A DNA stretch of 64,000 nt from a phage. Positions 5,617 to 50,197 of the stretch are shown one piece after another (the stretch's first letter is position 1; each line of letters begins with the position of its first letter). Location of the stretch: the sequence record PZ452595.1; one strand, given 5' to 3'. Made by a program: the position numbers and the translations under genes. The notes below the pieces were generated by a model. That model searched no databases, was not told the origin of the DNA, and saw nothing but the letters and a program-made list of their open reading frames with translations.

Positions 5617-6426
5617 ATGCTTAAAGAACAACTGATTGCCGAAGCGCAGAAAATTGATGCTTCCGTTGCTCTTGATAGTATTTTCGAATCAGTTAATATT
5701 TCTCCGGAAGCAAAAGAAACTTTCGGCACTGTATTCGAAGCTACCGTCAAGCAGCACGCCGTTAAATTAGCTGAATCTCATATCGCTAAAATTGCTGAAA
5801 AAGCAGAAGAAGAAGTAGAAAAAAATAAAGAAGAAGCCGAAGAAAAAGCTGAGAAGAAAATCGCTGAGCAAGCTTCTAAATTCATTGACCATCTTGCAAA
5901 AGAATGGCTCGCTGAAAATAAATTAGCAGTTGATAAAGGCATCAAAGCCGAACTGTTTGAATCCATGCTTGGTGGATTAAAAGAGCTCTTTGTTGAACAC
6001 AACGTTGTTGTTCCAGAAGAATCAGTTGATGTTGTAGCTGAAATGGAAGAAGAGCTGCAAGAACATAAAGAAGAATCAGCTCGTCTGTTCGAAGAACTCA
6101 ATAAGCGTGACGCATATATCAATTATGTGCAGCGTGAAGTGGCATTGAGCGAAAGTACTAAAGATCTGACTGAGTCTCAAAAAGAAAAAGTCTCTGCTCT
6201 GGTCGAAGGTATGGATTATTCAGATGCATTCTCAAGTAAATTGAGTGCAATCGTAGAAATGGTGAAGAAATCTAATAAAGATGAAAGCACTATTACTGAG
6301 AGTATAAATACTCCTGATACTGAAGCAGCCGGACTGAATTTCGTCACTGAAGCTGTAGAAGATAAAGCTGCACAAGGTGCAGAAGATATTGTAAGTGTAT
6401 ATGCGAAAGTCGCATCTCGTTTCTAA
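5617..6426 (+). CDS. 22: Prohead core scaffold protein gp22
   Basis: 269 aa, E/K-rich coiled-coil-like sequence upstream of gene 23. Confidence 0.9.
   Translation: MLKEQLIAEAQKIDASVALDSIFESVNISPEAKETFGTVFEATVKQHAVKLAESHIAKIAEKAEEEVEKNKEEAEEKAEKKIAEQASKFIDHLAKEWLAENKLAVDKGIKAELFESMLGGLKELFVEHNVVVPEESVDVVAEMEEELQEHKEESARLFEELNKRDAYINYVQREVALSESTKDLTESQKEKVSALVEGMDYSDAFSSKLSAIVEMVKKSNKDESTITESINTPDTEAAGLNFVTEAVEDKAAQGAEDIVSVYAKVASRF
6303..6310 (+). promoter_or_regulatory. T4 late promoter motif TATAAATA inside the 3' part of gene 22 (P23)
   Basis: Exact TATAAATA about 135 nt upstream of the gene 23 ATG. Confidence 0.5.
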
Positions 6427-44907: not shown

Positions 44908-45767
44908 TTATACCGCCATCTTTCCTTTAATTGGCGGGTGAGATACATAGTCGTTAAGAACAAAATTATGCGGCTTTGCGAATTGACTCAACCAAAATAC
45001 CTGTGATTCTGTGTCCCATTCATCAAATTCATCTGGGAATTTTAATTGTAATTCGCATAAATCCATAGGTTCACGACGCAAAATTTCTTTACATTGTTCT
45101 ACGTGATTCATATAGATATGAGTATTACCGCCAGAAAATATCAAATCTCCCGGAATAAGATTACATATCTTAGCTACAATATGAACTAACGCAGCATATG
45201 ATGCAATATTAAATGGAAGACCGAGGAAAACATCTACTGATCGTTGATACCACTGAAGGTCAAGGTATCCATTACGAACATTAAATTGATAGAACATATG
45301 ACAAGGTGGTAATGCCATCTGCTTGAGTTCAGCTGGATTCCATGCTGAAACAATTTGACGCCTATCATTTGGCAGTTTTTTAATACGATCAATAACTTCT
45401 ATAATTTGGTCTACACCACCAAAATCACGCCACTGTTTTCCATAAATTGGACCAAGTTCACCGCTATGGTATCCTAAATCTTTTGCTTGATTTTCGTAAT
45501 TTTCATCCCAAACTGTTTTGCCTTGGATTAACGAATCATGTTGAATTAATCGCAAATCATTGACATTTGTGCTTCCCGATAAAAACCATATTAGCTCAGC
45601 AATGCAAGCTTTCCAGGCGAGCTTCTTAGTTGTTACTGCAGGAAAACCTTTAGTTAAATCCCAGCGTAATTTAGTACCGAACAAAGCAATTGTTCCTGTG
45701 CCTGTTCGGTCATCGGTTTCGTAGCCATTTTCCAGGATATCTTTAATTAAAAATTGGTATTGTTTCA

Positions 45768-45768
<1 letters not shown>
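44908..45768 (-). CDS. td: Thymidylate synthase, uninterrupted
   Basis: Track start is TTG at 45780; the ATG at 45768 (MKQYQ...) gives 286 aa; continuous ORF with no intron. Confidence 0.93.
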
Positions 45769-46793
<1,025 letters not shown>

Positions 46794-46809
<16 letters not shown>

Positions 46810-47153
46810 TGAAAAGAGCTAGAAGCAAATCCGCTATCTTTAATCATTTTAACTAAAGTTACCATTCCTCTGTTAACTGCTTGTGCGATTTCATCAAAAA
46901 CTTCATCAATATCACCATAAAGATCGCTAAAAAGTTCTAATACGTTCTTCTGAACTTTTAATTTACAGCCAACAAATTCGCCTACAGTAAATTCGTTTCC
47001 GCCAATTCCAGTGTAAAACGTAATTACACCAGTTAATGGTCTTTCACTAGAACATAGGTCGTGTGATAAATTAATATAAGCCGTCCCGGGTGTAGTTTTA
47101 AGTTGGCAACGAATACTTACTCGAGCAATTCCAGCTACACGAATGTCAGACAT
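46794..47153 (-). CDS. Hypothetical protein (frd.2 position)
   Basis: 119 aa ORF. Confidence 0.55.
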
Positions 47154-47163
47154 ATTATTTTCC

Positions 47164-47406
47164 TCAAACAGACTTTTTCACAATTTTCCAATCAGCTTTA
47201 AACTGCTCGACGTCAGAATGGTAAATCCAGAATCCTGCGCTTTCTCCGTCTTCATAAAGAGGACATCCATCGCATTCATCTTCCCATCCCATGTCACGTA
47301 AAAGATGTTCAGCTTTTTCAACAAGCTCAGAATCTTTACCGATGATATTAAAATACCATTTACCTCTAACTTCTGAATCTTTGATGCTCTGGCGTTGTAA
47401 TCTCAT
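47164..47406 (-). CDS. Hypothetical protein (frd.3 position)
   Basis: 80 aa ORF. Confidence 0.55.
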   Translation of the reverse strand: MRLQRQSIKDSEVRGKWYFNIIGKDSELVEKAEHLLRDMGWEDECDGCPLYEDGESAGFWIYHSDVEQFKADWKIVKKSV

Positions 47407-47466
47407 TTTATTCTCCTCAGTAGTTGATAGGGTAATAGTATCACACTACTACCCTGTTGTAAACAA

Positions 47467-47760
47467 TTATTTTTGAATTTTATCGAGCCACTTACCAAGC
47501 TTAATCATTTCTTTAGTAGCCTTTTCCATACTTCTGAACTTAACCAATAGAGGATAGGTATCGACACCCATAACTAAACTGGTTACAAGACTGTGTTCAC
47601 CCACAAGCCATAATGAATACGTTTGAATATCGAGCCCGTAATTTCTGTCTTTATGGACCCGTACACCCATCACTTCAAATTTCTCACTAGCTTTTTCTAC
47701 CGCATCCAGGAAATCATCTTTAGTCATATTAGGCCTTAAAAGTTTTTCGCAAAAGTTCAA
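47467..47760 (-). CDS. Hypothetical protein
   Basis: 97 aa track ORF; start uncertain. Confidence 0.45.
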   Translation of the reverse strand: MNFCEKLLRPNMTKDDFLDAVEKASEKFEVMGVRVHKDRNYGLDIQTYSLWLVGEHSLVTSLVMGVDTYPLLVKFRSMEKATKEMIKLGKWLDKIQK

Positions 47761-48130
47761 TGATTTCGTCTACATTATTTTCGTCAACAATGCAGTGAAT
47801 TTTTGTTACGCCAGAAACCTTGTCTTCGATTTCATCTTCTTCAGAAGTCGGTTCTTTATATTCGCGGAAACAATAAAACTCTTCTTCACGAAGTTCAAAA
47901 TAATCATCACCCATACCATCATCATTATAGATTTCACCATTAGCACAAATGATTTCGGTTACATAATCAAAGCCATCTAAACTTAATATTGATTTAACTT
48001 CAAACCAACCACCATTTTCTTGAATGATGCCGACCATACTAGCATTTGATGAACTAATATCAATGAAAGATTTAATACGATGTGGATTTAACTCGTATTT
48101 TTTGCCGATTTCCATTTTGATTTTCCTCAT
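47729..48130 (-). CDS. Hypothetical acidic protein
   Basis: 133 aa ORF. Confidence 0.5.
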   Translation of the reverse strand: MRKIKMEIGKKYELNPHRIKSFIDISSSNASMVGIIQENGGWFEVKSILSLDGFDYVTEIICANGEIYNDDGMGDDYFELREEEFYCFREYKEPTSEEDEIEDKVSGVTKIHCIVDENNVDEIIELLRKTFKA

Positions 48131-48136
48131 TTTAAT

Positions 48137-48154
48137 AGGGGCTTGATAGCCCCT
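48137..48154 (-). terminator. Hairpin (aggggc-ttgata-gcccct)
   Basis: Inverted repeat between two - strand ORFs. Confidence 0.4.
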
Positions 48155-48160
48155 TGATAA

Positions 48161-48391
48161 TTATTGTTCAATCAGTCCCATGTAAAATTCTGCGTCTTCA
48201 GAATCCATGCCATCACAATATTCATTAGCCATAAAGCGGGTGAGGTCTTCAAGAGGACCTTCAATGACAATAGAAAAATTGCAATAATTGGGATCATCGT
48301 GAATACTTGTGATACTAAGTTCAGGATAACGATTACGAATAATTTCTTCGATATATTCAAAATCAACGATGTCAATATCAACTTTAGCCAT
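48161..48391 (-). CDS. Hypothetical acidic protein
   Basis: Track ORF 48161..48454; internal ATG (MAKVDIDIV...) gives 76 aa. Confidence 0.45.
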
Positions 48392-48494
48392 ATTATTTTC
48401 CTCTTTAATTATCAGCAGTATTGCCGATAGTTTTATAGTACCATGGAAGGACAAGGATGTAAACAGTTTTGCGAAAAATTTTTAAAATAAAAAA

Positions 48495-48513
48495 GGGGAC
48501 CCTAGAGGTCCCC
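48495..48513 (-). terminator. Gene 32 Rho-independent terminator
   Basis: GGGGACC-loop-GGTCCCC followed by a T-run on the - strand, 20 nt after the gene 32 stop. Confidence 0.75.
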
Positions 48514-48535
48514 AATTAATTAGTAATATAATCTA

Positions 48536-49444
48536 TTAAAGGTCATTCAAAAGGTCATCCAGGTCCGTGTCATCAGCACTAGATGAACTGCCAGAGCTTG
48601 AGCTCATAAAATCATCTTCAGTTTTTGTATTGAAGTCATCAACATTGAATGCATCCAAATCATCAGCAACTTTATCAGCTTTCTTAGCAGCAGTTGCAGC
48701 GGCACCGCCCATCACAGCAGTTCCCATAACTTGACCGAATTTAGTGCTCAGTTCTTCAAATGATTTGAATTTATCTTTAGAAGTCATTTCAGAAAGGTCA
48801 ACCATTTGTTCGAACAGTTCTTTCTGGAAAGATTCATCATCAATGTTTGGAATCGCAGATTGATTCAGGAATTTAGATTCATCGTAGTTACTAAATCCAG
48901 AAACCTGTTTAACTTTCAGTACAAAGTTAGCACCTTCCCACGGACAAGTTACATCAACCGGAGTTTCACCCATTTCAACATCAACTGCAATCATTGCATT
49001 GATTTTATCCCAGATTTTCTTACCGAAACGGTATTTAAATACTTTACCTTCATTTTCTGGAGCAGCTGGGTCTTTTACAACAAGAATGTTAGCCCAGTAA
49101 GAAGTTTTACGTTTAACAAGACTGTACTCTTTATTGTCAGTGTTGTACAGATCATTTTTACTGATGTATTGACATACTGGGCAAGAATCGTAATCACCGT
49201 GGGTAGATGAACAGTTTTCAATATACCATTTACCATTTTTCTTGAAACCGTGATTTACAAGAATTGCGAATGGTGCTTGTTCATCATTTTTAGACGGAAG
49301 AAAACGAATTACTGCTTGACCGTTACCCGCATTGTCGAGTTTCAGTTTCCACTCGCCTTTATCTTCAGAAGAAAAACCACCTTTATTTCCAGCCAGTTTA
49401 GCCATTTGCGCAGCGAGTTCAGCAGTAGATTTACGTTTAAACAT
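48536..49444 (-). CDS. 32: Single-stranded DNA-binding protein gp32
   Basis: About 301 aa; N-terminal basic segment, zinc-binding Cys/His region ([14 protein letters not shown]), acidic S/D-rich C-terminus. Confidence 0.95.
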
Positions 49445-49543
49445 TTTTATTTCCTTTTTAATTTAATTAACAGTTGGTGCTATGACGATGTATGACCTCA
49501 TAGCTGGTCAGTAAGATAATTATAATCTATTTATAATAAGCAA
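49445..49543 (-). promoter_or_regulatory. Gene 32 leader with A/U-rich translational operator and late promoter motif
   Basis: Unstructured AUUAAAUUAAAAAGGAAAUAAAA before the AUG; reverse complement of TATAAATA at 49528..49535. Confidence 0.5.
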
Positions 49544-50197
49544 TTAATACTTGCAAGATTTCACAGTTTCAATGAAAACATTTTTAGCTTTCTGTGAATC
49601 AATATTTAAAATTTTTCTATAAGCCTTTAACTTTATAGAATAATTATTCCAGACTAAATTATCAGTCTGTTCATCATGTTTATCAATTATATTTAAAAAC
49701 GAATCAAGCAAGATAAACGTCTCAAACGAAATTATGTTCGATTGCAGAAGTTTAAAAATATAACTTGACTGAACCTTTGGATTATATTCAAAGATTTCTT
49801 TAAAAGCAGAAACTTCAACTTTTTTACTAAAATAGTAAATATTGCGAATATCTTCTTCAAACTTAAATTTAATTTGCTTTAAGCGTCCGATATATTCACG
49901 ATAAAACACAAGTGCATCAGCGTCAGAGATGTCACCAATCCAAGCATCTTGGTTAGCAACCAAATTACTTATAAAGATTAAAGCAAGTTCCTTTAATTTA
50001 TATTTTTCTGATAACTTCTGGAAAAAATACTTATCCCTTCGCTTTTGATAAGCGGCATCAGACACCCGCATGCACCAATTATACTTAATTACATCATACT
50101 TTCCATTCATATGCTGTTTTATCATTAAGTATAATTTATAAACTGATTTACCATCAATGTATCTTTCACCACCAGCAGGCATGCGGAGTTTAATCAT
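49544..50197 (-). CDS. 59: Helicase loader gp59
   Basis: 217 aa, same length as T4 gp59. Confidence 0.93.
   Translation of the reverse strand: MIKLRMPAGGERYIDGKSVYKLYLMIKQHMNGKYDVIKYNWCMRVSDAAYQKRRDKYFFQKLSEKYKLKELALIFISNLVANQDAWIGDISDADALVFYREYIGRLKQIKFKFEEDIRNIYYFSKKVEVSAFKEIFEYNPKVQSSYIFKLLQSNIISFETFILLDSFLNIIDKHDEQTDNLVWNNYSIKLKAYRKILNIDSQKAKNVFIETVKSCKY

Follow-up and report, generated by a model that had tools for sequence, protein, structure and literature searches.

A T4-like island between frd and gene 32 that contains frd.3, frd.2 and an accessory gene absent from T4

In the Tequatrovirus analysed here, the three open reading frames closest to gene 32 are very probably the orthologs of T4 frd.3 and frd.2, followed by a small accessory gene, ORF86, that T4 lacks, within a region already known to be hyperplastic. 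We derive this reading, which extends to the layout of the whole interval between frd and gene 32 and to its relation to T4, from profile matches, gene order and alignments of a stretch of 64,000 nucleotides (record PZ452595.1; hereafter the window). The content of the interval has been described before: frd.2 and frd.3 are Pfam-family genes, and annotations of ORF86, ORF119 and ORF81 exist for RB27, AR1, JS98 and hundreds of further genomes. Hyperplastic regions with promoter/stem-loop elements have likewise been published for T4-like phages (PMC4122927). The significance of the present analysis is mainly one of correct annotation: for this island, T4 appears to be a reduced genome rather than the reference state, and the six-ORF arrangement commonly annotated in RB27 and AR1 is also that of the present phage. 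In practical terms, the analysis yields a clean map of the true gene starts, of the putative transcription unit, and of the genes that are really extra with respect to T4.

Results

All genes in the part of the window around frd and gene 32, together with the associated signals, lie on the minus strand. Following the direction of transcription, gene 59 (49544-50197) and gene 32 (48536-49444) are succeeded by the terminator hairpin of the latter (48495-48513), a promoter-like site (48435-48463), frd.3 (48161-48391; 76 aa), a hairpin (48137-48154), frd.2 (47729-48115; 128 aa, or 133 aa if read from an ATG at 48130), ORF86 (47467-47727; 86 aa), a second promoter-like site with an embedded hairpin (47429-47463), frd.1 (47164-47406; 80 aa), ORF119 (46794-47153; 119 aa), ORF81 (46552-46797; 81 aa), frd itself (45971-46552) and td (44908-45780), which is free of an intron. 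The initial annotation had counted six small ORFs between frd and gene 32, as opposed to three in T4, and this count is correct, both by the ORF list of the window and by the T4 annotation (NC_000866), in which the order is frd, frd.1, frd.2, frd.3, 32. ORFs on the plus strand of the interval (e.g. 47795-47980 and 48164-48430) we regard as antisense artefacts of the conserved minus-strand genes.

A megablast search with positions 47100-48600 against 50,697 phage records returned 657 matching records, nearly all of them from T4-like coliphages, with the closest DNA found in RB27 (97.4% over 100% of the query) and AR1 (96.9%). An identical six-ORF layout is annotated in these two phages, where frd.1, frd.2 and frd.3 are labelled at matching positions. 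In the sampled Tequatrovirus records, the span from frd to gene 32 ranges from 2745 bp (T4, RB59) to 3662 bp, with 3474 bp in the window; as this variation amounts to almost 1 kb among close relatives, the region is plastic, and the general idea of the initial annotation, an accessory island richer in small ORFs than T4, holds.

The ORF next to gene 32 matches PF05798 (Phage_FRD3) with residues 1-76 on profile positions 1-75 of 75, at an E-value of 6e-38 and a score of 129.6 bits (cut-off 28.1). Its product is 87% identical to T4 Frd.3 (NP_049853), from which it differs in a short internal patch, at residues about 30-40, with a one-residue indel, and it is predicted to adopt a ferredoxin-like alpha/beta fold. 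The neighbouring ORF matches PF03197 (FRD2) at an E-value of 2.5e-38 and 131.1 bits (cut-off 29), and its product is 97% identical to T4 Frd.2 (NP_049852). Both genes have the same order, strand and place directly downstream of gene 32 as in T4, and this is also their order in RB27 and AR1, whereas in JS98 frd.3 is found elsewhere within the island. As for the starts, the ATG of frd.3 at 48391 is preceded by AGAGGA, and the ATG that yields the 128-residue Frd.2 by GAGG; the 97-residue version of Frd.3 considered initially would begin at a TTG inside the promoter spacer, immediately behind the -35 hexamer, and is to be abandoned in favour of the 76-residue protein.

Beyond its Pfam assignment, Frd.2 belongs to phrog_622 and additionally shows a weak match to the goF PHROG (E 0.005). 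T4 Frd.2 has been placed, together with GoF and MotB.1, in a family with a predicted LSm-like fold, for which an N-terminal bent five-stranded antiparallel beta-barrel is characteristic and of which AlphaFold models of T4 Frd.2 have been published (PMC12152347). With its near-identity to this named member, the protein of the window would fall into the same family, and the weak goF match agrees with this placement.

At the other end of the island, the ORF at 47164-47406 encodes a DUF5417 protein (E 1.2e-33) that is 100% identical to T4 Frd.1, and the two ORFs between it and frd have no counterpart in the T4 locus. ORF119 is a DUF7247 protein (E 1.4e-30), 94% identical to RB27_231 and ar1_245, while ORF81 belongs to phrog_3183 (E 2e-41), has a pI of 4.08 and is 95% identical to RB27_230 and ar1_244. 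The initial annotation had distributed the names differently, taking the three ORFs nearest frd for a block of frd.1, frd.2 and frd.3, and the three nearest gene 32 for additions relative to T4. The total of six against three would suit that arrangement too, but the FRD3 and FRD2 matches and the identities of the respective proteins to their T4 counterparts put Frd.3 and Frd.2 beside gene 32, and it is the 119-aa and 81-aa ORFs beside frd that are missing in T4; we consider the reversed assignment extremely unlikely. Of the trio closest to gene 32, T4 consequently shares two ORFs and lacks only ORF86. Likewise, the statement that these three ORFs encode acidic proteins without recognisable motifs needs to be divided: Frd.3 (pI 4.05) and Frd.2 (pI 4.3-4.5) are indeed acidic but belong to named Pfam families, whereas ORF86, for which no Pfam match was obtained, is not acidic (pI 7.95). 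As a side observation, two of the three truly extra ORFs, ORF119 and ORF81, adjoin frd and are situated outside the interval 47467-48454 on which attention had originally been focused.

ORF86 matches phrog_4423 over its entire length (residues 1-86 on profile positions 1-86 of 86; E 8.5e-50). Its ATG at 47727 follows the stop codon of frd.2 at a distance of 1 nt and is provided with a Shine-Dalgarno sequence; it is also the start annotated in RB27, AR1 and JS98, and the homologs align from the first residue. A longer reading of 97 aa had been proposed for this ORF too, but its TTG start overlaps the end of frd.2. In comparison with seven relatives, ORF86 exhibits 19-28 synonymous and 2-10 non-synonymous codon changes, mostly in third positions, a pattern which indicates a genuine gene subject to purifying selection. 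The exact protein has been recorded from 231 contigs, always as 'hypothetical protein'. One might still ask whether the small ORFs of the island are mere chance products of intergenic DNA, given their small size and the AT-rich composition of the region (GC 0.33-0.37). However, they match curated families at E-values of 1e-30 or better, every one of them is preceded by a suitably spaced Shine-Dalgarno sequence, the codon changes in ORF86 are strongly biased towards synonymous ones, and all are annotated in hundreds of genomes, which leaves next to no probability for a chance origin.

An AF2 model of ORF86 has an alpha-beta3-alpha topology at a pLDDT of 74. Foldseek searches with ORF86 against BFVD gave nothing at an E-value of 0.001 or better, and a profile search against PDB sequences gave chance-level matches only (E above 1); for neither Frd.3 nor ORF86 did a database match point to a biochemical function. 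None of the three proteins encoded between gene 32 and the promoter-like site before frd.1 was matched by PADLOC at an E-value of 0.1 or better, a result that says little on an anti-defence role, because the PADLOC models exclude anti-defence proteins. In an exhaustive HMM search of 1.84 billion representatives, ORF86 homologs were found in 12 clusters, all of them stand-alone proteins of 64-98 aa and none with a domain fusion; the family is small and restricted.

The interval that comprises frd.3, frd.2 and ORF86 is flanked by two promoter-like sites of the T4 early type, TTTACA-N17-TACTAT with an upstream TG extension, running from 48463 to 48435 before frd.3 and from 47463 to 47435 before frd.1. 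Both fit the PST/T4 PeSL consensus TTTACW-N17-TAYWAT (PMC4122927), and downstream of each lie a Shine-Dalgarno sequence and an ATG. Our promoter and terminator calls are consensus matches; as the number of promoter-like sites in the region does not exceed the expectation from shuffled sequences (17 found versus 15.0 +/- 3.9), promoter activity is here deduced from matches in the sequence.

Hairpins had been reported to bound the small ORFs, and inverted-repeat scans and folding confirmed them at three places. The first, at 48495-48513, is the intrinsic terminator of gene 32, with GGGGACC-loop-GGTCCCC followed by a T-run and a folding energy of -15.2 kcal/mol. The second, between frd.3 and frd.2 at 48137-48154, is a GC-rich hairpin (AGGGGCT-loop-AGCCCCT; -12.9 kcal/mol) that has no T-run and was not called a terminator. 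The third, at 47429-47455, has a stem of 9-12 bp within the spacer and -10 region of the frd.1 promoter (-15.2 kcal/mol); its stem is kept in eight of ten folded variants, with several different stem sequences, and for this comparison individual fold energies were used, the variants pairing in different registers of the MAFFT alignment. An Rfam scan of positions 45500-49800 returned only a chance-level tmRNA match, whose 16 bits fall short of the gathering score of 84.

Since both sites fit the early-promoter consensus, the interval would lie between two early promoters and can be read as a single early transcription unit. Transcription would initiate at the early promoter that closely follows the terminator of gene 32, pass through frd.3, the internal hairpin, frd.2 and then ORF86, and arrive at the second early promoter with its embedded hairpin, which would drive frd.1. 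Before frd.1, both RB27 and T4 carry a mini-ORF of 22 codons that is missing in the window; the corresponding indel falls between two copies of the Shine-Dalgarno sequence.

Searches with tblastn detected ORF86 homologs in 352 phage records, about 195 of which, from Tequatrovirus and Dhakavirus-type phages, show an identity of at least 90%. The proteins RB27_233 of RB27 and ar1_247 of AR1 are 100% identical to ORF86 and JS98 orf232 (EpJS98_gp232) is 96.5% identical, and in each of these phages the gene is located directly after a frd.2-type gene. Beyond these, Phapecoctavirus phages carry homologs of 59-65% identity and the Webervirus siphoviruses of Klebsiella homologs of 42-47%, and the gene is also present in a few phages of Pectobacterium and Serratia; the Webervirus homolog, too, matches phrog_4423 (E 6.8e-36). 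The core of the protein, KDRNYGLDxQTYSLWLVGEHS, is very strongly conserved. Outside the T-even phages, the homologs sit amid runs of small hypothetical genes.

The close association with frd.2 raises the question of whether ORF86 could be devoted to Frd.2 as its partner or regulator, both genes forming a two-gene module with coupled translation and joint action on RNA. In 11 of the 11 Tevenvirinae loci examined, the ORF86 start is found 1 nt past the stop of a frd.2-type gene, in the form TAA-N-ATG, a spacing that survives duplication of frd.2 and is also seen behind upstream copies of the divergent frd.2a type. T4, however, possesses frd.2 without ORF86, and the homologs in Phapecoctavirus and Webervirus are preceded by members of phrog_25207, phrog_27940 and phrog_29074 instead of phrog_622, for which BLASTP detected no similarity to Frd.2. 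We consider a dedicated partnership distinctly improbable. As a general rule, a conserved pair of Frd.2 and ORF86 was rejected, since in Webervirus KOX1 and Phapecoctavirus nepoznato the genes upstream of the ORF86 homologs are unrelated to Frd.2.

An alignment of the window with T4 and RB27 shows ORF86 to be cleanly missing from T4, as an indel of about 265 bp, and the gene has no match in the T4 locus. T4 frd.2 ends in ...ACTTTC AAA AAG TAG ('...ACTTTCAAAAAGTAG') and is followed directly by the GTTTACA of the -35 element. Its tail, 'TCAAAAAGTAG', is the counterpart of the final codons of ORF86 and the bases downstream of them, which read ATTCAAAAATAA in the window and AAAAAGTAG before the -35 element in other phages (L013-L015). 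Because the tail of T4 frd.2 resembles the 3' end of ORF86, T4 looks like the product of a deletion at a TT microhomology, by which frd.2 would have been fused to the final codons of ORF86; the C-terminus of Frd.2 ends in ...TFKK in T4 as opposed to ...TFKA here because the presumed junction is located at precisely this point. A comparable scar is seen beside frd, where the 72-bp gap between frd.1 and frd of T4 contains the first ~16 codons of ORF119 (MYVIEIIQVSIRFQLK-stop) joined to the last codons of ORF81 (GGATTTACGTAATG in the T4 scar, GGCTTTGCGTAATG in the window), so that a second deletion would have taken out the 119-aa and 81-aa ORFs. With apparent deletion scars at both places, T4 appears to represent the reduced state, and the most likely history is that it lost ORF86 by a deletion of about 265 bp at a short microhomology.

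That ORF86 was lost from T4 is read from a short scar of about 12 nt, which leaves some probability to a gain in the present lineage. ORF86 and the promoter/hairpin downstream of it could have arrived as a cassette from a Dhakavirus-like donor, through recombination in the conserved 3' end of frd.2 and in the promoter, with T4 preserving the ancestral state. The comparison of the window with JS98 offers some encouragement for such a scenario, since the segment comprising ORF86 and the downstream promoter is about 90% identical at the DNA level, whereas Frd.1, Frd.2 and Frd.3 are only 60-73% identical at the protein level, and the flanking frd.2 is much more diverged. Moreover, the genes downstream of the shared promoter differ, with frd.1 in the window and frd.3 in JS98, where frd.2 is also duplicated, and in several Dhakavirus-size genomes (H137, H138) the megablast with the island matches nothing but the ORF86-promoter segment. 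A gain would, however, leave the resemblance of the T4 sequence after frd.2 to the 3' end of ORF86 to be accounted for; it also sits uneasily with the fact that ORF86 immediately follows a frd.2 paralogue in all of the Tevenvirinae loci examined (two genera), which fits an old linkage, and with the clear scar in T4 at the neighbouring ORF119/ORF81 indel, which marks the T4 lineage as prone to deletions here. We judge a gain to be unlikely, if by no means far-fetched, and favour the loss of ORF86 in T4. The near-identity of ORF86 between genera argues that lateral exchange occurs as well, and the two processes are compatible with each other.

Discussion

ORF86 emerges from these comparisons as a widespread, dispensable and mobile accessory gene. 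What it and its neighbours do can be stated with much less strength than their identities, their layout and their relation to T4. Judging from gene position, size, dispensability and horizontal distribution, our best inference is that Frd.3, Frd.2 and ORF86 serve as accessory proteins of early infection, dispensable to the phage and directed at macromolecules of the host or of the phage itself. Frd.2 would probably target RNA by means of its published LSm-like barrel, Frd.3 and ORF86 would probably bind a host or phage partner, and all three would raise fitness on some hosts while being non-essential. In T4, a frd.2 amber mutant is viable and plates normally (PMC12152347), and frd.2 was the only gene of unknown function classified as 'Fit' in a CRISPRi-ART screen (PMC11879866). 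In the study of the GoF/MotB.1/Frd.2 family, RNA stability was altered only by the GoF(D25Y) mutant (PMC12152347). The mRNA of frd.3 is among the most abundant NAD-capped RNAs of T4 (bioRxiv 10.1101/2024.04.04.588121).

A more specific proposal would be that ORF86 is a mobile early gene for host takeover or anti-defence, swapped among Tevenvirinae, Phapecoctavirus and Webervirus, that is, among unrelated virulent phages of enterobacteria, and perhaps acting in T-even phages with the LSm-like Frd.2, to which its translation appears to be coupled; we put this forward as a rather doubtful idea. As dispensable conserved early genes, ORF86, ORF119 and ORF81 are reasonable candidates for systematic screens of T-even accessory genes for effects on host range or anti-defence.

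The two promoter-like sites partly resemble the PeSL elements of T4-like phages (Arbiol et al. 2010; Comeau et al. 2014, PMC4122927), namely in the consensus, the association with a stem-loop and the adjoining indels. They differ in other respects. PeSLs carry their stem-loop upstream of the promoter, which at frd.3 would correspond to the gene 32 terminator, about 30 nt upstream of the -35 element, whereas the stem-loop at frd.1 is embedded in the spacer and -10 region. Nor do the indel junctions fall at the element: the ORF86 indel ends about 10 nt upstream of the -35 element, and the presumed deletion junction of T4 falls within coding sequence, where the ends of frd.2 and ORF86 share a microhomology of 2-3 nt (TT). 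At the frd.3 site, one and the same hairpin would double as terminator of gene 32 and as stem-loop upstream of the putative early promoter.

Hairpin and mini-ORF upstream of frd.1

The predicted early promoter upstream of frd.1 contains a hairpin of 9-12 bp, which lies within window 47429-47463 and occupies the spacer and the -10 region. We folded ten variants from related phages; equivalent sites lie in JS98 (locus L004) and in loci L007-L016. The stem was kept in eight of them, with folding energies of -8.8 to -15.6 kcal/mol, and lost in the other two. The stems themselves vary in sequence, among them GGGTAGTAG/CTATTACCC, AGGCTAT/ATAGCCT and GGTCTATAG/CTATAGACC, with another stem in L016, and the pairing registers are not uniform across the variants. 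These data suggest that the site is a composite element under selection, combining a promoter with a 3'-end hairpin.

In T4 and RB27 (L002), a hydrophobic mini-ORF of 22 codons (MFAPYIMAAVMLVCLYLLIKAC*), equipped with its own Shine-Dalgarno sequence, is found between this promoter/hairpin and frd.1; in T4 it is located on the minus strand at about 6010-6078 of the T4 locus (L001). The window lacks the mini-ORF, the site of absence being 47407-47428, and the loss corresponds to a 76-bp deletion bounded by two copies of GGAGAAnAnAAAATG. A tblastn search matched the peptide in 201 phage records; since it is identical in 162 of these, a test for coding selection has no power. Among the matches listed, the mini-ORF is an annotated feature in none of 30 records.

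Variable gene content from td to gene 59

On the other side of frd.1, T4 carries a 72-bp intergenic gap (L001 5692-5762) between frd.1 and frd, which looks like a deletion scar: within it, some 16 codons from the start of the DUF7247 ORF (MYVIEIIQVSIRFQLK*) are fused to the final codons of the 81-aa ORF. The interval between frd and td differs between these phages as well. There, the window encodes ORF68 on the minus strand (45768-45974), a basic protein of 68 aa (pI 10.3; phrog_9550), whereas RB27 and AR1 have a different ORF of 115 aa in its place and td directly adjoins frd in T4. The sequence is 98.5% identical to JS98 L004 4525-4728, a stretch that bears no annotation in the JS98 record; ORF68 is a further accessory gene, near-identical in another genus. 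A weak Rfam match to beta_tmRNA on the minus strand at 45904-46073, within the frd/ORF68 coding sequence, was taken as chance; at 16.4 bits (E 0.036) it falls short of the gathering score, which is 84.

The td gene of the window (44908-45780) contains neither a group I intron nor I-TevI, as is also the case in RB27 and AR1, and the gap between genes 32 and 59 (49445-49543) contains no segG homing endonuclease gene; in T4, by contrast, both the td group I intron with I-TevI and segG are present.

The island of JS98 is arranged differently from that of the window, in the order 32, frd.2a, frd.2b, ORF86, frd.3, frd.1. Its two frd.2 paralogues lie in tandem at L004 1741-2499, and Frd.2 of the window is 31% identical to frd.2a and 60% identical to frd.2b.
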